32,000 nucleotides of DNA from Clostridia bacterium (GTDB lineage: Bacteria > Bacillota > Clostridia > Lachnospirales > Lachnospiraceae). The position numbers and the translations under genes were made by a program. The notes beneath the pieces were generated by a model. It was not told the DNA's origin. It saw only the letters and a program-made list of their open reading frames with translations, and ran no database searches. This document shows, piece after piece, positions 1,963 to 21,599 of the stretch. The DNA lies in NCBI GenBank assembly GCA_003246295.1, contig QKAS01000057.1, positions 969 through 32,968 on the forward strand, read 5' to 3'. Every line of letters starts with the position of its first letter. Within the stretch, counting starts at the first letter, position 1.

Positions 1963-2937
1963 ATGCATTTTACAGAAGAAGAACTTGCAATTGCTAAGTC
2001 AGTCGATCTCTGCCAGGTTGCAGCGAGCTTGGGATATACTGTCAAGCGTGTGGGTAGATATCATACGCTGAAGGAAATGGATTCAATTCGTATTTATCAA
2101 AGAACACATTGGTTTCGTTGGAGTCGGAAGTATGATCGGGGGGAGAATGGTGGATCTCAGATTGATTTTCTAAAAGTGTTTGCTGGGTTGGAAGTAAAGG
2201 AAGCTGTTTTCTGGCTCCTTGATTTCGCAGGTTATCATGATCATGAGAAAGAGCATGACCTTAAGCATCAGGTTGTATGGAAGAAGGAGGAATCAAAGAA
2301 AGAGTTTATACTTCCGGAAGCATCACCAACTAATCACTATTTATATCGGTATCTCAACCATACCAGATGTATTAGCAAGGAAGTAATTGATTTCTTCGTA
2401 AATGCTGGTCTGATTTATGAATCGAAACAATATCACAATATCGTATTTAAAGGGAATGATAAGGATGGAATCACCCGATTCGCCAGTATGCGCGGAGTCT
2501 TTGATCGAGAGGGTAAAAGTTTCAAGTGTGATGTGGCTGGAAATGATAAGAATTATGGCTTCAATGTGATGAACAATAAAAGCACAACAGTAATAGTATT
2601 TGAAGCAGCGATTGACCTTATGAGTTTTATCGAAGCTTACAGGGGCTATGATTCCAATAAACTGGCATTGGGAATGCTCTCGGATGCACCGCTTGTAACA
2701 TTCTTAAAAGAGCATCCACAGGTTCGTACGATTCAGTTGTGCTTAGATAATGATGCTCCGGGAAGAGAGGCAACCCTTCTGCTCAGGCATAAGTATGAGG
2801 AATTGGGCTATCAAGTGATTGATAGTCCACCACCAGCTCTTTTCAAAGATTATAATGAGTGGTTGGTTTCTGAAAAAACAAAGCCAGTTGAGGAATATGC
2901 CGAACATATTATGGTCAAGAATGGTTTGACGAGATGA
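1963..2937 (+). CDS. Toprim domain protein of the DUF3991 / primase-like type.
   Basis: The toprim Glu sits in VIVFEAAIDLMSF and the DxD motif in QLCLDNDAPGREA. The N-terminus (LGYTVKRVGRYHTLKEMDSIRIY...W..WS....GGSQIDFL) is typical of the DUF3991/toprim proteins that accompany Firmicute relaxases. GGAAGGTGAGAG precedes ATG 1963. Confidence 0.75.
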   Translation: MHFTEEELAIAKSVDLCQVAASLGYTVKRVGRYHTLKEMDSIRIYQRTHWFRWSRKYDRGENGGSQIDFLKVFAGLEVKEAVFWLLDFAGYHDHEKEHDLKHQVVWKKEESKKEFILPEASPTNHYLYRYLNHTRCISKEVIDFFVNAGLIYESKQYHNIVFKGNDKDGITRFASMRGVFDREGKSFKCDVAGNDKNYGFNVMNNKSTTVIVFEAAIDLMSFIEAYRGYDSNKLALGMLSDAPLVTFLKEHPQVRTIQLCLDNDAPGREATLLLRHKYEELGYQVIDSPPPALFKDYNEWLVSEKTKPVEEYAEHIMVKNGLTR

Positions 2938-2973
2938 CGTGTAGAAATTTCACCTTGATTCCGACAGCAAATC

Positions 2974-3054
2974 ATGTCCACAGTATGGGGTCACTCGTAA
3001 AATTGTATGTCCACAGTTTGGGTTTGATATGAAAAAGAGTGTCCACTGTTTCGG
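2974..3054. repeat. Three direct repeats of about 16 bp (ATGTCCACAGTWTGGG), spaced 32-33 bp apart.
   Basis: ATGTCCACAGTATGGGG at 2974-2990, ATGTCCACAGTTTGGGT at 3007-3023, and GTGTCCACTGTTTCGG at 3039-3054. Confidence 0.85.
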
Positions 3055-3062
3055 ATTTCGCC

Positions 3063-3278
3063 ATGGTATGAAATCATCATACCATTCCGTCGATTTGGTA
3101 TGAAAAAGTGATACTATTTTGGCAAAATGGTATGAAAACGTCATACCATGAAATTGTACTAGGGGAAACGAAATTGAAATCGTGAGCTCAGATGGTATGA
3201 AAACGTCATACCATATTAAGAAAATGGTATGAAAATACAATACCATTATGGCAAAATGGTATGAAAACATCATACCAT
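3063..3278. repeat. Six copies of a 23-bp palindromic (hairpin-forming) repeat, ATGGTATGA-N5-TCATACCAT, in 32-bp register.
   Basis: Copies start at 3063, 3095 (degenerate), 3127, 3192, 3224 (right arm degenerate) and 3256. Spacings are 32, 32, 65, 32 and 32 bp. The region is non-coding and lies between the toprim gene and the mob genes. Confidence 0.9.
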
Positions 3279-3297
3279 TGCGCTAAAGACAGGGGTT

Positions 3298-3315
3298 TTA
3301 GGGGGTGACCCCTAA
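3298..3315 (+). other. Perfect 7-bp stem with a 4-nt loop: TTAGGGG-GTGA-CCCCTAA.
   Basis: Read directly from the sequence. It lies just downstream of the palindrome array and upstream of mobC and the relaxase gene, so it is a candidate oriT or nic-region hairpin. Confidence 0.5.
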
Positions 3316-3323
3316 CCAGTGGC

Positions 3324-3959
3324 ATGAGACGGCTCTCGTGCGTATCTGGCAAAGTCCTTCGGACTTTTCAGGGGGCATTCTCAAAGGTGGAAAGAAAAGA
3401 ACGGATAAGAAAGGGGGCTACAAAAGCGTTGGAGAATGACAGAAAATTAATAACAGAAGCAAGGCAGCTTATCGATTGGTTGGATGTGAATGACATACTT
3501 ATGAACCTTTCGGAGAAGGACATTACTCTTCTGATGAATTATATGGAAGGTCATGGATACCAGCTTGGAATTAATTCTGAGAGACTATTCAAAATCAGTA
3601 AAGATTCGTTGGCTGATCAGGCGGTAGCTATATCCATTGATGATATTATTGATTCTGTATGTGATTGGAATTATGAAATGATTCAACATGCTAAGGAGAA
3701 TCTGGAGCATGCAACCGGTATGGGTGAATATCTCCAAGCACAGGAGTATTACAATGGTGTAAGAGTAGATGAGGGTATCCTTGATAAGATGTTTGATCAG
3801 ACTTATTATGGCAAAGAAATCATTCGGTTGGCAGAAAGATTGGCTGGAGAAGCAATACAACAACTACAGAAAACAGGGAATATTGATAAGGTATCAATGA
3901 CTGTCGCTGATACGATCAAGGATTATGGTACGGAACAAGAAAAGGGTAAGGTGAGATAA
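3324..3959 (+). CDS. Hypothetical protein upstream of mobC; the start is uncertain (an in-frame GTG at 3387 or a later codon is more plausible than ATG 3324).
   Basis: The 211-codon ORF ends TAA at 3957-3959 and overlaps the mobC ATG by 1 nt. No family was recognised. The 5' 60 nt contains hairpins and has poor coding character. Confidence 0.55.
   Translation: MRRLSCVSGKVLRTFQGAFSKVERKERIRKGATKALENDRKLITEARQLIDWLDVNDILMNLSEKDITLLMNYMEGHGYQLGINSERLFKISKDSLADQAVAISIDDIIDSVCDWNYEMIQHAKENLEHATGMGEYLQAQEYYNGVRVDEGILDKMFDQTYYGKEIIRLAERLAGEAIQQLQKTGNIDKVSMTVADTIKDYGTEQEKGKVR
3351..3367 (+). other. Perfect 7-bp stem-loop: AAAGTCC-TTC-GGACTTT.
   Basis: Read directly from the sequence. It lies inside the first 15 codons of track ORF 3324-3959, which argues that the true start of that gene is further downstream. 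Confidence 0.5.
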
Positions 3960-4288
3960 TGGCTGACAGGATACACTGTGTGAAGAAGACGCTTCGACTA
4001 ATGCCGGGAGAAGCAAAGGAGTTAGCACAAAAGGCTGAAATGGCAGGTATGTGTGAGGCGGACTATCTTCGTTTTTTAATTTCACAGAAGCCGAATGACT
4101 ATCCTGAAATCCGAATACTCCTAAAGCAATTAACAAATGAAATAAACCGTATTGGTAACAATATCAACCAAGTGGTTTATAATAATAATTCGGAGCTATA
4201 CCGGAGGGAGGATAAGGAGAATCTGAATGCCTATATGAAAAAACTGAATCTGACCATGAAAGAGGTGGTGGAGCAGTTTGGCAATTAG
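3959..4288 (+). CDS. mobC: MobC-family relaxosome accessory protein.
   Basis: LRLMPGEAKELAQKAEMAGMCEADYLRFLI and INRIGNNINQ match the MobC (bacterial mobilisation protein) pattern. The gene is immediately upstream of the relaxase gene and overlaps it. Confidence 0.85.
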   Translation: MADRIHCVKKTLRLMPGEAKELAQKAEMAGMCEADYLRFLISQKPNDYPEIRILLKQLTNEINRIGNNINQVVYNNNSELYRREDKENLNAYMKKLNLTMKEVVEQFGN

Positions 4289-5807
4289 TAAGATTCTTTA
4301 TATTAAGGATTGTGGAAGCAGTCATAATGGGAAGCATTTACGACAAGCAATCAATTATATCATGGTAAAAGAAAAAACGGGAAATGGTAAATATGTGGGT
4401 GGATTGAACTGTCAACCGGAGTTCGCTTATGAACAGATGAAAAAGACCAAGGGAATATTCGGGAAGGTAGAGGGCAGGCAGGGATATCATCTGATTATTT
4501 CTTTTGAAGATGGAGAGGTTGATGCACCAACTGCTTTTGAGATCATTGGTCGATTTACAAATGAGTATCTGGCAAACGGATACGAAGCCGTTTATACGGT
4601 TCATGATAATACAGATCATATTCACGGTCATATCCTATACAATAGTGTAAATTTTATAACAGGCATGAAATATCGTTATGAAAAAGGTGATTGGGCGAGG
4701 GATATTCAGCCAATTACAAATCGGTTATGTCAAGAATATGGGTTATCTACCATAGAAATATCGGAGGACAGAGAAAAACCAGATCATAAATTTAAGGAAT
4801 GGAATGATTATCGAGACGGGTCATATGCATGGAGTAAAATGATTTGTAGAGATCTGGATGCCTGTATCTTACAGTCTCAGTCATTTGATACTTTTGTTGA
4901 ATTGTTGAGTGAGAAGGGGTATGAGGTCAAACAAGGCGGAAAGTATCTGGCAGTTAAACCGATGGGTATGATTCGATTTAAACGATGCAAAACCCTTGGA
5001 GAAGAGTACACGGAAGAAAGAATCAAGGAGAGGATTTTGACAGAAACCTTAACCTTAACCGTACCTCAGAACAAGAATATTGCGCCTCATATTATCCGGT
5101 GCAAGGTGAAGCGCTTGAAAAGAGCAAAGCTCACAAAACTTCAGAAAAGATACTATGCCAGGTTGTACCGAATTAGGAAACTAAAAAAGCGACCATATAG
5201 CCAGGTATGGAAATACCGGGATGAAATTCGTAAGATGCAGCAGATCCAAGAACGGTATCTGTTTCTATTGAATCATGAAATTATGAGTATAGAAGAATTG
5301 GTTGTCGTAGGTGACCGAATTGCTGAAGGTAGTAAGAAAATCTCTAAGGAGAAGAGCAGAACCTTCAAAGCTAGAGCCAAGTGCCAGTCACTCTTTGATA
5401 TTGCAGCAGAGATGGAGGAACTAAAGGATGCAGAAAGTAGCTTTGTACGAGGGGAGTTGTTCTTTCAGGCAGAGCATGAAAGGTATCATGAACTGGCTGA
5501 ACAGCTCCGAGTAGAAGGATATTGTTTCGAGGAAGTAATGGAGTTAAGAGAGAATTATCGAAATGAGATATCACAGGTAAAAGAGAAAGAAAAAGCAGCT
5601 GCAAAAGAGATATCAATCGTAAAGGCTATCATAAGAGAAACGATGGAAGAAAAGATACGTCAGCAAAAGCAATCCGTGATCAACGAGGAAATTCCAGAAA
5701 TTAAGATGAAACAGTCAGCAGAAACTGCACATTCAGACCTAACACATTTAGAATCAATAGAGAAGGCATTAGAAGAGCAAAAAGGTGAGCGACAGCCAAG
5801 AAGATAG
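4278..5807 (+). CDS. MobA/VirD2-family relaxase (MOBP-like) with a long coiled-coil C-terminus.
   Basis: The histidine triad is VHDNTDHIHGHILYNSVN. The N-terminus MAISKILYIKD...AINYI is typical of this family. The start is TTG 4278, after GAGGTGGTGGAG. Confidence 0.9.
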   Translation: MAISKILYIKDCGSSHNGKHLRQAINYIMVKEKTGNGKYVGGLNCQPEFAYEQMKKTKGIFGKVEGRQGYHLIISFEDGEVDAPTAFEIIGRFTNEYLANGYEAVYTVHDNTDHIHGHILYNSVNFITGMKYRYEKGDWARDIQPITNRLCQEYGLSTIEISEDREKPDHKFKEWNDYRDGSYAWSKMICRDLDACILQSQSFDTFVELLSEKGYEVKQGGKYLAVKPMGMIRFKRCKTLGEEYTEERIKERILTETLTLTVPQNKNIAPHIIRCKVKRLKRAKLTKLQKRYYARLYRIRKLKKRPYSQVWKYRDEIRKMQQIQERYLFLLNHEIMSIEELVVVGDRIAEGSKKISKEKSRTFKARAKCQSLFDIAAEMEELKDAESSFVRGELFFQAEHERYHELAEQLRVEGYCFEEVMELRENYRNEISQVKEKEKAAAKEISIVKAIIRETMEEKIRQQKQSVINEEIPEIKMKQSAETAHSDLTHLESIEKALEEQKGERQPRR

Positions 5808-5823: not shown

Positions 5824-5906
5824 CCAGATTCAGTTTGGTAATGCTTTTAAAAACTATGCTTCATAGGGTAATGCAAAATTAATAAATGGAAGTGAGGAGG
5901 ATTTAT

Positions 5907-7058
5907 ATGCAAGAGCAAATGCAGATAAACAAAGTGGATATCGGTATTATGATAGGAGATCTGGAAAGAACAGGCAAATATAGTGACGACCAGATTCAAC
6001 TAATTAGGGAAGATTTACTCTATGGACTTAGCAAAGAGTCGATAGAAAGGTATACCCAGAAGAAATACGATCTTAAACAGATGCAGGTTTTCTCAAAGTG
6101 TTTGAGAAACAATTATCCGGAGGAGGTCATTGCTGCGATTACGGCAAACGGTCTTAGTTGGCAGCAGATGGAGGTTGCGTTGGAATTCTATGAGAAAGGA
6201 ATTTCGATTGAAACCATTTCGAAGGTAGCATCTGGAGATGTAACAGCTGCCAATATGAAAAGAACATATCAAAGGGTTCTGAATGAGATGGAAAAGTCAG
6301 TTAGTAATGGTGATGGTAATGAACCTTACGTGAAACAGCTTATGGAGCAGATTAATGCAGTTGTAGATAAGCTTGAGTTTCAGGAACAGCGTTATGATTC
6401 TTTGAATCAGAAGTTGAGGGGTATGGAGATAGCAAAGAAGAATTCTGAAGAGGAGATTAAGCTTCGAAAGGAATTAGAAGAAAAGGATGCACTGCTCATT
6501 GAGCAACAGAATAAGCAAAATAATCTGCATGCAACAGTAGCCAAGCTTCAAAATGATTGCGAGGTGCTGCGAAAGGAGAAGGGTGAGATGGAAAAGATAT
6601 TAAATGAAGTAAGAGGAAATAATCAGCAAAGAGAATTTGGCGATGCAAAGAAGGATGTCGTAGTGACAGGATCAGAAGCAGGTAGGAGGCTAGAACCGGT
6701 GGAACCCATGCCGTTATATTATGGAATGCCGATTGGCTATAGCTTGTGCGTGATGAATGGTAATACGGTTATCATACCAGTAGTACCAATTGAAAAAACA
6801 GTAAGAAAAACTTCTGGTTCCATTGGAATTTTCTCTAGGCTATTGCTTAAAAAGAAATCCAGACAGGATCTTGTCAAGCTGATCACCGAAAAGGAATTGA
6901 CACCGGGGCAGTTAATTCAAATCAAAAGTGCTATCGAAAAGGGATTAGATGAAGATCAGTTACAAGAACTGATTCAAAACAAGGTTTCTGCAGAACAGAT
7001 GGAAATTATTATTGAGATTGCGACAATGCAAAACAGCAGGGGGGAATTGAGAGGATGA
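5907..7058 (+). CDS. Hypothetical coiled-coil protein with related ~40-aa modules at its N- and C-termini.
   Basis: GAGGAGG at 5894-5900 precedes ATG 5907. The central segment (EFQEQRYDSLNQKLRGMEIAKKNSEEEIKLRKELEEKDALLIEQQNKQNNLHATVAKLQNDCEVLRKEKGEMEKI) is coiled-coil-like. Confidence 0.7.
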   Translation: MQEQMQINKVDIGIMIGDLERTGKYSDDQIQLIREDLLYGLSKESIERYTQKKYDLKQMQVFSKCLRNNYPEEVIAAITANGLSWQQMEVALEFYEKGISIETISKVASGDVTAANMKRTYQRVLNEMEKSVSNGDGNEPYVKQLMEQINAVVDKLEFQEQRYDSLNQKLRGMEIAKKNSEEEIKLRKELEEKDALLIEQQNKQNNLHATVAKLQNDCEVLRKEKGEMEKILNEVRGNNQQREFGDAKKDVVVTGSEAGRRLEPVEPMPLYYGMPIGYSLCVMNGNTVIIPVVPIEKTVRKTSGSIGIFSRLLLKKKSRQDLVKLITEKELTPGQLIQIKSAIEKGLDEDQLQELIQNKVSAEQMEIIIEIATMQNSRGELRG

Positions 7059-7466: not shown

Positions 7467-8567
7467 ATGTCAGAGATACAGGATGCTGTTCAGATTATTC
7501 GAATCGCTTACGACGGAATCGAGATCGCCATGAAGGTAGGGAGTGGAACGATCGAATCCATGAAAAAGGCGATTGATTTGTTGGTTGGACTTTTGGATTA
7601 TGAAAAGTCCATGGGGAAATCCTCTATGCGAAAACTCTTACAAAAGGGAGGAGATCTACAGGTATTTCAGTTTCATACGGATGAACTCAAGAAGGTCGAA
7701 CGAATGGCGAAGAAGTATGGAGTACTATACTCAATCTTGCCTGACGTAAATAAAGAAGATAATCGGAGTGAAATTATTTTTCATTCAGAGGCATCACCAC
7801 GGATTAATATGATGGCGCAGAAATTGGGATTCGGAGAGATTGCTGGTCTTGATGATTATCTGAAGAATAGTAGTGAAAAGGATCTTGGTAAGATGCTTGC
7901 GTTTCTCCAGGCACAACAGAGGGGAAACGGGATAAGCCACACAGGTGAAGCAGTTAAAGCAAATATTTTGATGGAGGGACTAATTGAGAAGGTCGGACTA
8001 TTTGCGATGGAAAAACAGAGCATCAGTGTGGAGACGATTAAGGAGAACTTTCGTATCGAAACAAACCAGGCACAGGAAGTGATTAACAAGCTTGGAGCGA
8101 TTGGAGTATTGGATCAGGGAGATTTGGAAGGGAATTTTCGCGTACTAATGGATAAGGATTCATTTCAGAATCGAATTCGTGGATATCAGGAGCTGGCAGA
8201 TCGTATGAGAACGGTTTCAGCTTCTAAGAATAGGGATCTTGTTGATATCACAATCGCAAAGCAGCTTGTCTGGGAGGAGAATGATCATGCGGTCAAGACA
8301 AGGATTCCGGGTGGTAGTAAAACGTTCATTTGGCTTAATAAGTCAGATGTTATGGAAATTCACGATGGAAAGACGTTGTTGACATTCCTGGATAAGAATA
8401 AGGAGTATAAGATATACTCCGAGGATAATCAGGTCGTTAACCGGATGCGTGGAGATCAATTATACGATAAGCATTATGATATCGTTGCAAATGAGGTTCG
8501 ACAACGGTATGAGAGGTTTCAACCGCAAGCGAATTTGAACCATGCAATCAAAAACAAGGCGAGGTGA
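7467..8567 (+). CDS. pcfB: PcfB-family (DUF3801) conjugation protein.
   Basis: The N-terminus (AVQIIRIAYDGIEIAMKVGSGTIESMKKAIDLL...LQVFQFHTDELKKVERMAKKYGVLYSILPD) matches the PcfB/DUF3801 pattern. The position directly upstream of the coupling protein gene is the same as in pCF10-type systems. Confidence 0.8.
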   Translation: MSEIQDAVQIIRIAYDGIEIAMKVGSGTIESMKKAIDLLVGLLDYEKSMGKSSMRKLLQKGGDLQVFQFHTDELKKVERMAKKYGVLYSILPDVNKEDNRSEIIFHSEASPRINMMAQKLGFGEIAGLDDYLKNSSEKDLGKMLAFLQAQQRGNGISHTGEAVKANILMEGLIEKVGLFAMEKQSISVETIKENFRIETNQAQEVINKLGAIGVLDQGDLEGNFRVLMDKDSFQNRIRGYQELADRMRTVSASKNRDLVDITIAKQLVWEENDHAVKTRIPGGSKTFIWLNKSDVMEIHDGKTLLTFLDKNKEYKIYSEDNQVVNRMRGDQLYDKHYDIVANEVRQRYERFQPQANLNHAIKNKAR

Positions 8568-17756: not shown

Positions 17757-20700
17757 TTGAGAGTTGATTATCAGGTAAAGCAGATCTATGATATGATGAT
17801 CCAAGAAGTAGCAACAAGTGAGCTTAAATGGAGAGATGTGTGCCGCTTAATGGGACAACTCTATCGCTATGAGTTTGATAATATTTTGATGATATATGCT
17901 CAGCGGCCACATGCAACTCTGGTCGCTGATTTTGATACATGGAAGAAAGTGAACCGTTATGTAATGCGTGGGAGTAAGGGGATCGCAATTTTTCCTTCGA
18001 GAGCACTGCATCCACGAATGAGATATGTTTTTGATATCTGCGATACAGGTGGGAAGAAACAGGATTTAACATGGGATTTGAATGGTGAGAAGCTGACGGA
18101 TTTTGTGGCTTTCATGAAAACAAGTGGATTATTCAAAGAAGAAAGTAATCAAGTGGATTCTGACGATCTTGATGCGCAGGACATTTTTCAGAAAATTTTG
18201 AAGACTCAGCTAAAAAACTTTACAAGAACATACGTTCGAGCTATAATAAAAGAAGAATATTCAGATCGAATCAATGAGCTAACGAGATTAGTCGGGGAAT
18301 ACGGTCTGGAAAAAGACGATATTATGAACGAAGCAGATAATTCACCTAACAGTCCAGTAGCACAATTTATTTATCAAAGTGCTTTCTATGCCATCGGCAC
18401 AAGGTGCGGTTTTGACCTTGACATTCAGGAACAGGATTTTGGTTCGGTACTTCGATACCAAAGTGAAGATGAGATATATCTGATCGGGACATTGGTAAGT
18501 GATATCTCCTGTAACGTTCTAAGAGAGTTTGCAAGAAACCTAAAACAGATGGAAAAGCAGAGAATGCTGCTAGAAGAAAGGGGTATAACACATGGCAGAG
18601 ATCGCATTGACTTATACGGAGAAGGAGGGAATCCTATATCCGAATCTGGAGTTACCGAAGGAGGAAGAGCTGAATCTCCACAACCTTGGGAAATACGGAA
18701 TGATGGCATTGAATTATCTGATGGAGAACGAACCGGCACGGCTCAAGACATTAATGAGATTCGGATTGTTGACACAGAAAATGTACGAAGTGGACGAAGA
18801 GGCAAATCAGCTTCTGGATATCCTCATGATGGACTATCTGGCGAAGAACAAGCCGAGAGATCCAAATTCCACGATAGAGATGTGGCAGATCAGAGAGCAG
18901 GCGAAGATGCAGGCAGAGGAAATCGTATTGAATCAGATCGTATTGAAATTTCATTAGAACATGATCAGATTGAGAGCGAAATAAAACAGGAACTGGATGA
19001 AATCAATTCATTCGGCAAGCAAGGGGAAGCCAATTACCAACAGGCTTCCTTTTCTTTTGACAATGCAGTGGGTCAGACTAAATACACCTATCTGGAAGCG
19101 AAGAAAGAATTGATAGTACCCCATGAATATGTCGTGGAAGTGATATTGCGTGGTTCGGGCTTTGCTAATGGAAAAGGACGAATTGCTATAATATATCAGA
19201 ATGAGTCAGTTCCTTCTGAACGAGCAAAGTTAATCAAGAAGGAATATGGATTAGGTGGTGCAGGATGGCCGATCGATGGTTATGGATTACATGGGTATAA
19301 CACTTTTAAGAATCAGGGTATTGGTATTAAATGGAGAGATGAAGAAGGAGAAAAGGAAGGCTATGTAAGCTGGGCAGTTGTAGAGCAGGAAATCGGGGCT
19401 CTGATATTGACTGGAGTATATGATAAAGATCAATTACAGAATAATACGAAATCAATTGATGGTGACAGTGTTGGTTATGACGAGATCGAGCTGGTAGATG
19501 AAAATGATACTGACCATGAAGATAGGGAGTCGCTTCAACGAGAACAACAATGGATCGATGATGAAATCCTTGATGATTTTGCTATCCCGGATGAGCTGGA
19601 TGAGATGTATGGAGTGGTAGATGAAGTTGTGACAATCGAAGGGTTATCAGAAGACAGACTCCCCAATGATCTGGAATATATGAGTGACATTACAACCAGA
19701 AGTGTGGAAGTCGGTTCCTTGCCTCGTTCTTTGATTATCACTGAAAAGAGAAACTTCCATTATACTCAGTTGGATGTTGATGCTGCTGGAGCAAAGACCA
19801 GATACAATTGGAATGTGGAAGCAATCCGCACATTATTTCAGATTGAAGGTGACGGAAGATTTGCTACTACTGAGGAACAAAAGGTTTTGGCAAAATATGT
19901 TGGCTGGGGTGGATTGTCACAGGTATTTAATGATGCAGACAATTCGTGGAGACATGAATATGTGGAACTAAAGAATTTACTATTAGAAGATGACTATGTG
20001 GCAGCAAGGGCATCGGTTAACAATGCTTTCTATACCTCTCCTGAAATTGCAAGCTGTAAGAATCAAGCGCTTGTTCGGTTTGGATTTCAAAATGGCAATA
20101 TATTGGAACCATCCATGGGTATCGGAAATTTCTTTGGATCACTTCCGACAGCCATGCAGAATTACAATCTCTTTGGAGTGGAGATTGATTCGATATCGGG
20201 ACGAATTGCGAAGCAACTGTATCAAAACGCTGATATTCGAATCACTGGATTTGAGAAAACTTCATTTCCTGACAACTTCTTTGATGTGGCAATCGGGAAT
20301 GTTCCCTTTGGTGATTATAAGCTTTTTGATCCGAAGTATAATAAGCTGAACTTTCGTATCCATGATTACTTTCTGGCGAAATCAATCGATCAGGTGAGAC
20401 CGGGAGGAATCATTGCCTTTATCACAACCAAGGGAACACTGGATAAGAGCAATCCTTCCGTAAGAAAATACCTTGCAGAGCGAGCAGAATTAATTGGAGC
20501 TATACGACTTCCGAATACAGCTTTCCGCGATAATGCGGGGACGGATGTAGCGACAGATATCTTATTTTTGCAAAAGAGAGAGCGAGCCATCGTGGTAGAA
20601 CCAGATTGGGTACACTTGGGTTATACAGAGAATGGAATTGCGGTTAACTCTTATTTTGTAGAGCATCCCGAGATGATGCTTGGAACGATGGAATATGATA

Positions 20701-21599
20701 CAAGGATGTTTGGTGATGGGAGCAAGTATACTACCTGTGTGAATCGAGATCCTGACTTTAATCTGTATGATTCCATACAGAAAGCCATTTGGTCATTATC
20801 AGCCACGATCACTGATTATGAGAGGTTCGAGGATATTGCAGAAGAACCGTCTGATCATATTCCTGCTAGTCCTGATGTGCGTAATTACACCTATACTTTT
20901 ATGGATGGAAAGCTGTATTACAGAGAGAATTCAAGAATGTATCAAAAAGAGTTAAGCCTCAATATGGAGGAGCGCATCAAAGCGATGGATAAGATCAGGA
21001 TAATAACTAGAGAACTGATCACGCTTCAGACTGAAGGATGCAGCGAGGAGGTATTGATTAATAATCAGAAGAGCTTGAATGAGACTTACGATGCATTTAC
21101 AATGAAGTACGGCTATCTTACAAGCAGGGAGAATGATAGAGCCTTCCGTAATGATTCAGACTATCCTTTGCTCTGCTCTCTTGAAGTAGTGGATGAGGAT
21201 GGTAAGGTGAAGAAAGCTGATATGTTCTACAAGCAGACCATCAAACCAAAGTTAATCATAGAGCGGGTAGAAACGGCGGTAGAGGCACTGAATATATCTA
21301 TGAATGAGTATGGCACGGTTAATCTTCCCTTTATGTTAAGTATTTATCATCCATGTATTACAAATATTTTTGAGGACTCTCATCAAGTCAGTATCATATC
21401 AGAGCAGGAAAAGGCAGAGCTGGAACGAAAAATGATTATCGATGAACTGTCGGGGCTTATTTTCCTGAATCCAATGTCGTATAATGAGAACAACTTAAAT
21501 GCTGGATGGGAAAGTGCGGATGAGTATTTGTCGGGGAATGTGAGGGATAAGTTCCGAATTGCCAAGGCATTTGCCGAAACGAATCCGGAGTTGTTTTGA
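17757..21599 (+). CDS. Polyvalent conjugative-element protein. It has an ArdC-like N-terminal domain, a low-complexity linker, a conserved GSGF...EYGLGGAGW module and a gamma-type N6-adenine DNA methyltransferase domain. It ends at an in-frame TGA.
   Basis: GGAGGTG at 17743-17749 lies 7 nt before TTG 17757. The ArdC-like segment is YEFDNILMIYAQRPHATLVADFDTWKKVNRYVMRGSKGIAIF. The methylase motifs are motif I (ILEPSMGIGNFFG, ~20100) and motif IV (VAIGNVPFGDY, ~20290). Homologues as I remember them continue into a helicase region that is absent here. Confidence 0.85.
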   Translation: MRVDYQVKQIYDMMIQEVATSELKWRDVCRLMGQLYRYEFDNILMIYAQRPHATLVADFDTWKKVNRYVMRGSKGIAIFPSRALHPRMRYVFDICDTGGKKQDLTWDLNGEKLTDFVAFMKTSGLFKEESNQVDSDDLDAQDIFQKILKTQLKNFTRTYVRAIIKEEYSDRINELTRLVGEYGLEKDDIMNEADNSPNSPVAQFIYQSAFYAIGTRCGFDLDIQEQDFGSVLRYQSEDEIYLIGTLVSDISCNVLREFARNLKQMEKQRMLLEERGITHGRDRIDLYGEGGNPISESGVTEGGRAESPQPWEIRNDGIELSDGERTGTAQDINEIRIVDTENVRSGRRGKSASGYPHDGLSGEEQAERSKFHDRDVADQRAGEDAGRGNRIESDRIEISLEHDQIESEIKQELDEINSFGKQGEANYQQASFSFDNAVGQTKYTYLEAKKELIVPHEYVVEVILRGSGFANGKGRIAIIYQNESVPSERAKLIKKEYGLGGAGWPIDGYGLHGYNTFKNQGIGIKWRDEEGEKEGYVSWAVVEQEIGALILTGVYDKDQLQNNTKSIDGDSVGYDEIELVDENDTDHEDRESLQREQQWIDDEILDDFAIPDELDEMYGVVDEVVTIEGLSEDRLPNDLEYMSDITTRSVEVGSLPRSLIITEKRNFHYTQLDVDAAGAKTRYNWNVEAIRTLFQIEGDGRFATTEEQKVLAKYVGWGGLSQVFNDADNSWRHEYVELKNLLLEDDYVAARASVNNAFYTSPEIASCKNQALVRFGFQNGNILEPSMGIGNFFGSLPTAMQNYNLFGVEIDSISGRIAKQLYQNADIRITGFEKTSFPDNFFDVAIGNVPFGDYKLFDPKYNKLNFRIHDYFLAKSIDQVRPGGIIAFITTKGTLDKSNPSVRKYLAERAELIGAIRLPNTAFRDNAGTDVATDILFLQKRERAIVVEPDWVHLGYTENGIAVNSYFVEHPEMMLGTMEYDTRMFGDGSKYTTCVNRDPDFNLYDSIQKAIWSLSATITDYERFEDIAEEPSDHIPASPDVRNYTYTFMDGKLYYRENSRMYQKELSLNMEERIKAMDKIRIITRELITLQTEGCSEEVLINNQKSLNETYDAFTMKYGYLTSRENDRAFRNDSDYPLLCSLEVVDEDGKVKKADMFYKQTIKPKLIIERVETAVEALNISMNEYGTVNLPFMLSIYHPCITNIFEDSHQVSIISEQEKAELERKMIIDELSGLIFLNPMSYNENNLNAGWESADEYLSGNVRDKFRIAKAFAETNPELF
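18592..18957 (+). CDS. tnpV: TnpV-like 121-aa ORF nested in the +1 frame inside the polyvalent ORF.
   Basis: ATG at 18592, preceded by GAAAGGGG (18575-18583); stop TAG at 18955-18957. The translation MAEIALTYTEKEGILYPNLELPKEEE..LGKYGMMALNYLMENEPARLKTLMRFGLL..VDEEANQLLD..MWQIREQAKMQAEEIVLNQIV follows the TnpV family pattern over its full length. Confidence 0.55.
   Translation: MAEIALTYTEKEGILYPNLELPKEEELNLHNLGKYGMMALNYLMENEPARLKTLMRFGLLTQKMYEVDEEANQLLDILMMDYLAKNKPRDPNSTIEMWQIREQAKMQAEEIVLNQIVLKFH

Follow-up and report, generated by a model that had tools for sequence, protein, structure and literature searches.

An array of nine short repeats in a 32-33 bp register lies between a DUF3991/Toprim primase-like gene and the mobC-relaxase genes of a Firmicute-type conjugation module, and raises the question of what so ordered a stretch of DNA is for. 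We analyzed this array within a 32-kb stretch from a Clostridia bacterium (contig QKAS01000057.1), referred to here as the window in its full length of 32,000 nucleotides, and compared it with related elements. We propose, at a probability of about one half, that the array is the distal, element-specific part of the origin of transfer (oriT) of a conjugative element with a MOBP-type relaxase, and a candidate phased platform for protein docking. On this proposal it is not an independent origin. Comparison of related sequences suggests that it is most likely curved, and that it confers element-specific recognition beside a core containing the putative nic site. The choice of an origin by the transfer machinery is poorly understood in Gram-positive integrative and conjugative elements (ICEs).

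The array and the adjoining core

The 23-bp palindrome ATGGTATGA-N5-TCATACCAT, with up to three mismatches allowed, occurs six times in the window, compared with 0.04 occurrences expected from shuffled sequence. All six copies are confined to one non-coding gap, with none elsewhere in the window at this threshold, and they follow one another in steps of 32, 32, 65, 32 and 32 bp; four are perfect and two are degenerate (Table 1). The direct repeat ATGTCCACAGTWTGGG precedes them at 2974 and 3007 (no mismatches) and at 3039 (three mismatches), in steps of 33 and 32 bp, and its sole further match in the window, at 4727 with three mismatches, is attributed to chance. A preliminary description of this DNA had reported three direct repeats and six palindromes in a 32-33 bp register with one 65-bp gap, which was confirmed. 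Its six hairpins with 9-bp stems were borne out in part, as a perfect stem is present in four of the six palindromes, and its 386-bp gap was corrected to about 491 bp of non-coding DNA (2938-3428) on account of the downstream gene start at TTG 3429. The array is non-coding. A minus-strand open reading frame (ORF) of 107 aa that crosses it (2950-3273) was rejected as a chance ORF, since relatives do not conserve it; arrays are also no more open than shuffles. No arrays of the exact palindrome were found in 185,579 species-representative genomes, where it occurs in single chance copies only.

Just downstream of the array, positions 3289-3372 are nearly invariant in an alignment of relatives. The preliminary description had overlooked this segment, which was masked by the mis-called start of an ORF at 3324-3959; the ATG at 3324 sits within a conserved hairpin of the segment itself. 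Homologs of that ORF are 173-184 aa in length and span 83% of it, and the product is 176 aa according to other gene callers, which places the start of the gene, here called X, at TTG 3429. This codon is preceded by a AAAGGGGG ribosome-binding site, and the first 35 codons of the 211-aa ORF (3324-3428) are almost certainly untranslated. The anatomy of the segment, with a GC hairpin (IR1), an inner hairpin (IR2), an invariant GCGTATCTGGCA box and a third small hairpin, suggests a nic core. The box appears to resemble MOBP-type nic sequences (YATCCTG|Y). A precise annotation of oriT is thereby proposed for a family whose origin hides under a mis-called ORF.

The same plan was found in eight syntenic loci identified via protein X, one of them on an Enterococcus faecium optrA/fexA plasmid. 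Each has three sites, then a vacant slot of double length, three further sites, and about 40 bp to the GC hairpin, with the DUF3991/Toprim gene preceding the array in every case. The arm sequences differ among these loci (ATGGTATGA, ATGCTATGA, GTGATAGCA, AGATATAG). A DNA probe for the core, CCCCTAACYAG-N15-45-GCGTATCTRGCA, matched at least 120 metagenome contigs, mostly from the human gut, and no viral contigs. Together with nearly a thousand close homologs of the neighboring PcfB-type protein, these matches mark the element family as abundant in human-gut Firmicutes. Among the matches listed, 32 bp was the strongest self-similarity lag in 90 of 98 distinct upstream sequences, with a mean identity of 0.50 at this lag and of approximately 0.25-0.31 at other lags. 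The steps 32/32/64-65/32/32 recur over dozens of arm alleles, the 64-65 bp step in essentially all arrays, and in nearly all arrays site 6 lies about 55 bp from CCCCTAAC, in helical register. The array thus stands at a fixed distance beside a nearly invariant core, as an accessory array of an oriT would, the nic site itself being putative. The distal triplet is kept in all relatives, with differing arm alleles, and reduced arrays of four, three or two sites always retain the core-proximal sites. TGTCYACA-type repeats at steps of 32-33 bp, which correspond to the direct repeats of the window, were found in loci L038, L041, L044, L046 and L042 (L numbers are our own locus labels) and are absent from L043 and most other lineages.

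The arrays are also rich in A-tracts. Runs of four or more A occur 8.5 times per 234-nt array, compared with 2.0 in flanking DNA. They cluster sharply at two phases of the 32-bp unit, and many alleles have T-runs at a third. About one tract per helical turn is a signature of intrinsically curved DNA, so that the array of about 230 bp would be expected to curve with all of its words on one face.

The array travels with the core across related elements, including orphan origins, with two exceptions that are considered below. Loci without X, mobC and relaxase downstream still have the core with 6, 4, 3 or 2 sites. Such orphan origins, with two to six sites of the allele GGTGTGTCA-AAAAG-TGACACACC and no relaxase, were seen at L094, L159, L093, L061, L107, L108, L134, L142 and L141/L086; one orphan type has mobC alone. 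Their neighbors are ABC-F, GNAT, Fic, ORF6N and abortive-infection-like genes, and these loci may be mobilizable islands that borrow the machinery of an ICE.

Several variants of the region were observed among the loci. A CTATAT(A/T)-type box is conserved between site 6 and IR1 in most alleles, and the lineage of the window has TTGCGCTAAAGACA instead. In L169 and L170 (about 5840-5870) IR1 is degenerate (GGGGGCGTGGCACCCTAAC), with array and nic box otherwise intact, and in L125 an apparent insertion separates the array from the core. Enterococcus optrA/fexA resistance plasmids (NZ_CP079928.1, E. faecium pEF7150-3, 41.7-46.8 kb, our L042; NZ_CP050817; NZ_CP096049) carry, next to these two genes, a fragment of an element of this family with toprim gene, array, core, X, mobC, relaxase and p390, the gene encoded directly after the relaxase. 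The X homolog on these plasmids is annotated as a 'multidrug transporter', which looks like a mis-annotation.

Exchange of the array and its candidate readers

The array is an independently exchanged cassette among otherwise near-identical elements. L063 and L151 are 89-99% identical in both flanks and only 42-43% in the array, and between L065 and L165 identity is 93-100% over the stretch from -2.8 to +1.1 kb, the array excepted. Over 13 kb, L054 and L165 differ at three places only: the array, the inner hairpin with the 5' end of mobC, and a short segment with a helix-turn-helix (HTH) gene. Words that are hypervariable and are exchanged as a cassette point to a specificity label.

A second exchange links the inner hairpin to MobC, a NikA-like ribbon-helix-helix (RHH) protein. 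L065 and L054 differ only in IR2 (3322-3341) and the 5' end of mobC (3959-4020 in the window), and gene X between them is 97-99% identical. All 16 MobC proteins of the KPFR type are paired with the inner hairpin GCACTTGTATTACAAAGTGC, and the adjusted mutual information (AMI) of the MobC strand with IR2 is 0.37, compared with 0.05 for the strand with the array arm. IR2 and the N-terminal RHH strand of MobC are thus exchanged together as two short patches and form a second specificity pair, independent of the array. RHH proteins such as R64 NikA and RP4 TraJ bind the inverted repeat beside nic, and MobC of the window appears in the same role, which explains IR2 and not the nine repeats. MobC is the probable reader of IR2, judging from this co-variation.

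The AMI of 0.37 indicates that these data are able to reveal a genuine coupling of protein and site, and the adjacent proteins were compared with the array on this basis. The preliminary description had suggested a platform for relaxosome assembly by MobC or RHH-like proteins. The platform at the oriT is retained as the most likely reading, and MobC is discarded as its reader, since the same MobC beta-strand occurs with at least eight arm alleles. Nor did the two other proteins then suggested for binding assays, gene product X and the relaxase, prove to be coupled to the array: the relaxase is 99% identical between elements with different arrays, and X is 98% identical with different arrays and only 66% with the same array, is missing from L075 and lacks a DNA-binding fold. 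The toprim protein, the relaxase and the 131-aa protein p131 were rejected because near-identical pairs carry different arrays, as was the PcfB-like DUF3801 protein, whose identity is 97-99% among elements with three different alleles. The XRE-type HTH genes that some relatives have at about -3 kb encode identical proteins beside different arrays, and no more than 13 of 62 loci have such a gene. Global identity correlations and class-level areas under the curve (AUCs) gave no discrimination between proteins, owing to shared ancestry.

The N-terminal half of p390, a 390-aa coiled-coil protein, is the best candidate for the array reader, at roughly one chance in three on mixed evidence. Over 45 loci, this half was at least 85% identical in 4 of 858 pairs with different arrays, and below 85% in 1 of 108 pairs with the same array. 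Among 21-kb loci sharing an identical PcfB-like protein, L168 and L170 are 43% identical in the array and 53% in the 5' half of p390, compared with 97% in the C-terminal part of the toprim gene, 90% in mobC, 92% in the relaxase gene, 96% in the C-terminal part of p390 and 97% in p131. Conversely, L168 and L182-188 are 98-100% identical in the array and 97% in the N-terminal half of p390, versus 78-85% in core, X and mobC. Subfamilies of the N-terminal half align with related word families. The structure model of p390 has an N-terminal bundle of short helices with tandem repeats of about 50 aa (aa ~16-141, pLDDT 84-91), followed by a coiled coil of about 100 residues, a disordered linker and a small C-terminal helical domain, an architecture that would suit multivalent binding.

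From these observations the following mechanism is hypothesized. The origin would be laid out as optional TGTCYACA direct repeats, three sites, the empty slot, three sites, about 40 bp, IR1, IR2 and the GCGTATCTGGCA box, with IR2 read by the RHH strand of MobC and the box presumably nicked by the relaxase. Each 32-bp unit, equal to three helical turns, would present two words of 6-9 bp parted by oriented A-tracts. An oligomeric, element-encoded protein, for which the swappable N-terminal helical-repeat module of p390 is the candidate, would bind the words cooperatively on duplex DNA, most strongly at the palindromic core-proximal sites. By wrapping or bending the array against the nic core, it would help the relaxosome to assemble, or would license it, at the oriT of the element that encodes it.

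Several observations weigh against this reading. L080 and L133 hold the core without any array. Tn1549 shares with our element MobC, a MOBP7-type relaxase and the position of the oriT before mobC. Its 257-bp gap upstream of mobC (CP063580, our L167, 2954-3210), which we equate with the oriT reportedly defined by Tsvetkova et al. (2010), lacks a phased array, the core there is unrelated, and the relaxase is only 34% identical. These cases indicate that the array is no general requirement of MOBP7-type origins. With respect to p390, L054/L154 versus L165 and L069/L077 versus L089 keep the N-terminal half (97% and 89-90% identity) and differ in their arrays, although the arrays within both groups share some words. 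The exchange between L168 and L170 could be one contiguous tract from the array to the middle of p390, in which the two pieces that evolve fastest would simply look most different. The N-terminal half of p390 also has no recognizable DNA-binding fold and no significant structural or family match (best Foldseek E = 0.17).

Arrays of accessory sites are already known at oriT. The F-plasmid oriT has TraM sites (sbmA-C), TraY sites and integration host factor (IHF) sites, and the RP4 oriT has a bent region wrapped by TraK. The present array resembles them in having multiple putative accessory-protein sites and presumably bent DNA to one side of nic, in the stretch that separates the nic hairpins from the neighboring genes, with a proposed role in building the relaxosome. 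It is unusual in its rigid plan of three sites, gap and three sites at exactly 32 bp, in its hypervariable cassette words, and in that its reader would not be the adjacent RHH protein, of which the array is independent. In oriT2 of pAD1 and pAM373 of Enterococcus faecalis, plasmid-specific short repeats reportedly lie beside a large inverted repeat and are said to have been proposed as determinants of transfer specificity. The likeness lies in short, element-specific repeats with helical periodicity at an oriT; however, those are direct repeats of 5-6 bp with a periodicity of about 11 bp and a different relaxase family, whereas here the units are 32 bp, have two words and are often dyad-symmetric.

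The array cassette and the separately swappable pair of MobC and hairpin are concrete and testable candidate determinants of oriT specificity and cross-mobilization in Gram-positive ICEs, and could improve the prediction of which islands or orphan origins are mobilized by which elements. A bolder version, which we regard as tentative and rather doubtful, holds that oriT carries a three-part code of independently recombining pieces, in which the N-terminal half of p390 would read the array, the RHH strand of MobC the inner hairpin, and the relaxase the nic box. The array would then be an address label that keeps the origins of sibling elements residing together in gut Firmicutes from being used or hijacked by each other's machinery, and the orphan loci with core and array would be label-copying parasites.

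Alternative functions

The position of the array upstream of the relaxosome operon suggests another function, unlikely in our view but the best of the alternatives: six operators of graded affinity, in two lambda-like triplets, through which a repressor or activator encoded elsewhere in the element would control the operon of X, mobC, relaxase and type IV secretion system (T4SS) genes. Diversification of the immunity type would account for the many alleles, and hypervariable cassettes are swapped in this manner in immunity regions. Each triplet has one or two strong palindromes together with weaker sites, and no neighboring protein is cleanly coupled to the array. However, a consensus scan for sigma-70-type promoters found no plausible promoter on the + strand in 2938-3428, the helical register is fixed to the nic core and not to a promoter, and the XRE-type HTH genes that lie near the array in some relatives are lacking at most loci and fail to follow the allele. 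The retention of core and array where no relaxase operon lies downstream fits a component of the transfer origin better than an operator of that operon.

It is improbable that the array acts in single-stranded form, its hairpins in the transferred strand being either a single-strand promoter or a single-strand initiation (ssi) or single-strand origin (sso) signal at which the primase-like protein, or the RNA polymerase of the host, would start priming. The preliminary description had considered both an ssi-type origin used by the adjacent primase-like protein and a single-strand-promoter array. The primase-like gene is adjacent, no cleanly co-varying protein was found, and both strands of the window array fold far better as single-stranded DNA than shuffles do (z = -7.7 and -7.3). 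Freely varying stems and a conserved A-rich loop would be expected, and the center AAAAAGT is indeed conserved, with arms that vary and often stay complementary. Hairpin potential, however, is not conserved in all slots. Among 52 clean arrays, perfect stems of at least 7 bp occur in 52% at slot 6, in 15-29% at slots 1, 3 and 4, and in only 4-6% at slots 2 and 5 (0% in shuffles), and the empty slot never has hairpin potential. Some arrays mix two unrelated words in mixed orientation (e.g. AGAACTT-AAAAAGT-GCTATCA), which makes a hairpin impossible at those sites and fits half-site recognition on duplex DNA. A strand-specific asymmetry of G.T and A.C wobble was striking in the raw mismatches (A.C 63 versus G.T 10) and was rejected when it collapsed after dereplication (15 versus 6, plus 16 A.G), with no clear bias of G.T over A.C on either strand.

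With unconserved hairpins at slots 2 and 5, mixed words and two strands that fold equally well, the arrays do not show the conserved stem-loops on one strand that mark an ssi or sso, and the array is probably not an ssi. Independent hairpins would need neither so strict a 32-bp spacing nor a constant distance from the core, and no Rfam family matched the array, the only hits being two sub-threshold ones to microRNA families (E 0.75). An ICE sso of three stem-loops is documented in ICEBs1 (PMC4595007). The array is like the sso of rolling-circle plasmids and the ICEBs1 sso1 in that stem-loops are clustered in an element that transfers as single-stranded DNA, but an sso needs a conserved fold of one strand, and sso1 is not adjacent to the nic site of ICEBs1 and looks different (PMC4595007). 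The 'six hairpins' are a peculiarity of the window's lineage, and what is conserved among the arrays is the words, the A-tracts and the phase, which favors recognition on duplex DNA.

We give only a small chance to the array being purely architectural DNA, in which phased A-tracts would form a static bend that aids melting or relaxosome geometry, and the words would go unread, their similarity arising from duplication and concerted evolution. A-tract enrichment and phasing are the sole features that do not depend on the allele, and arrays are swappable between near-identical backbones. Unread spacers, on the other hand, would not keep the dyad symmetry evident in the slot 6 stems, nor would a word set be kept over six sites in dozens of independent alleles. 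An iteron replication origin or a parC- or tubC-like partition centromere for an extrachromosomal form of the element, also among the early suggestions, is highly improbable: the two clusters of phased repeats, of the type bound by oligomerizing proteins, bear a superficial likeness to R1 parC (clusters of 5+5) and pBtoxis tubC (3+4), but neither the window nor about 20 kb of surrounding sequence in relatives has a gene of the Rep, ParA/ParM/TubZ or ParB/ParR type, and the position of the array is tied to the nic core.

The surrounding element

The module has genes for DUF5688, RadC and DUF3991-Toprim proteins before the gap, and for X, NikA-like/MobC, the MOBP relaxase and the 390-aa and 131-aa proteins after it (Table 1). 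These are followed by genes for the DUF3801 protein, a VirD4-type coupling protein, PrgI, VirB4 and a fusion of an ArdC N-terminal domain and a methylase, which is probably the element's anti-restriction/methylase protein. The GC content falls from approximately 0.40 to 0.32 near 22 kb (~22000), where host-like genes start (AraC regulator, GH2 glycosidase, Fe-ADH, TauE and LarA-like protein), and the element probably ends on the right at this drop. The window contains no integrase.

Table 1. Features of the transfer region and adjoining genes, in window coordinates
Feature	Coordinates	Strand	Remarks
DUF3991/Toprim primase-like gene	1963-2937	+	Pfam PF13154, PF13155; its stop bounds the non-coding oriT region on the left
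Three direct repeats, (A/G)TGTCCAC(A/T)GT(A/T)T(G/C)GG	2974-3054	+	starts at 2974, 3007, 3039; lineage-specific upstream extension in the ~32-bp register of the array
Distal triplet	3063-3149		3063-3085 perfect; 3095-3117 degenerate (3 mismatches); 3127-3149 perfect; step 32
Central empty slot	3150-3191		without site; keeps the triplets 64-65 bp apart
Core-proximal triplet	3192-3278		3192-3214 perfect; 3224-3246 degenerate (2 mismatches); 3256-3278 perfect; step 32
IR1 GC hairpin, TTAGGGG-GTGA-CCCCTAA	3298-3315	+	stem conserved, loop free; in all core-probe loci
IR2 inner hairpin, GCATGAGA-CGGC-TCTCGTGC	3322-3341	+	its sequence type changes in step with the N-terminal RHH strand of MobC
Invariant box GCGTATCTGGCA	3340-3351	+	putative nic region
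Third small hairpin, AAAGTCC-TTCG-GGACTTT	3351-3368	+	end of the conserved core; invariant in close relatives of the window
Gene X, 176 aa	3429-3959	+	corrected start; conserved between core and mobC; no known domain
NikA-like RHH / MobC accessory protein	3959-4288	+	Pfam PF21983, PF05713
MOBP-type relaxase	4278-5807	+	MobA/VirD2-like nuclease domain; Pfam PF03432, NCBIfam TraI_MobP
p390, 390-aa coiled-coil protein	5886-7058	+	encoded directly after the relaxase
DUF3801 protein	7467-8567		'PcfB family' in NCBI names; weak FtsK-gamma winged-helix hit, precomputed for many homologs too
1280-aa protein	17757-21599		ArdC-like N-terminal domain and Eco57I-type methylase domain

The structure model of X (pLDDT 83) had no significant neighbor in a structure search of the PDB. 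Conservation of the DUF3801/PcfB-like protein is extreme, and its recombination is independent of that of p390 and p131 (L058 versus L165, 99% against 52%). Zero, one or two small XRE-type HTH genes, whose products end in a C-terminal CxxC...CP motif, precede DUF5688; they were located in L054, L113, L165 and L100 (about -3.4 to -2.9 kb from the core) and in L168-L174 (2642-2971), in a recombination hot spot that adjoins a large LPXTG/SpaA-type surface protein gene. In L181, a group II intron-type reverse transcriptase (RVT_1, 18569-20497) follows a shortened VirB4 call of 667 aa, versus 792 aa in relatives, and in L180 an IS110 transposase (1365-2627) adjoins DUF5688.

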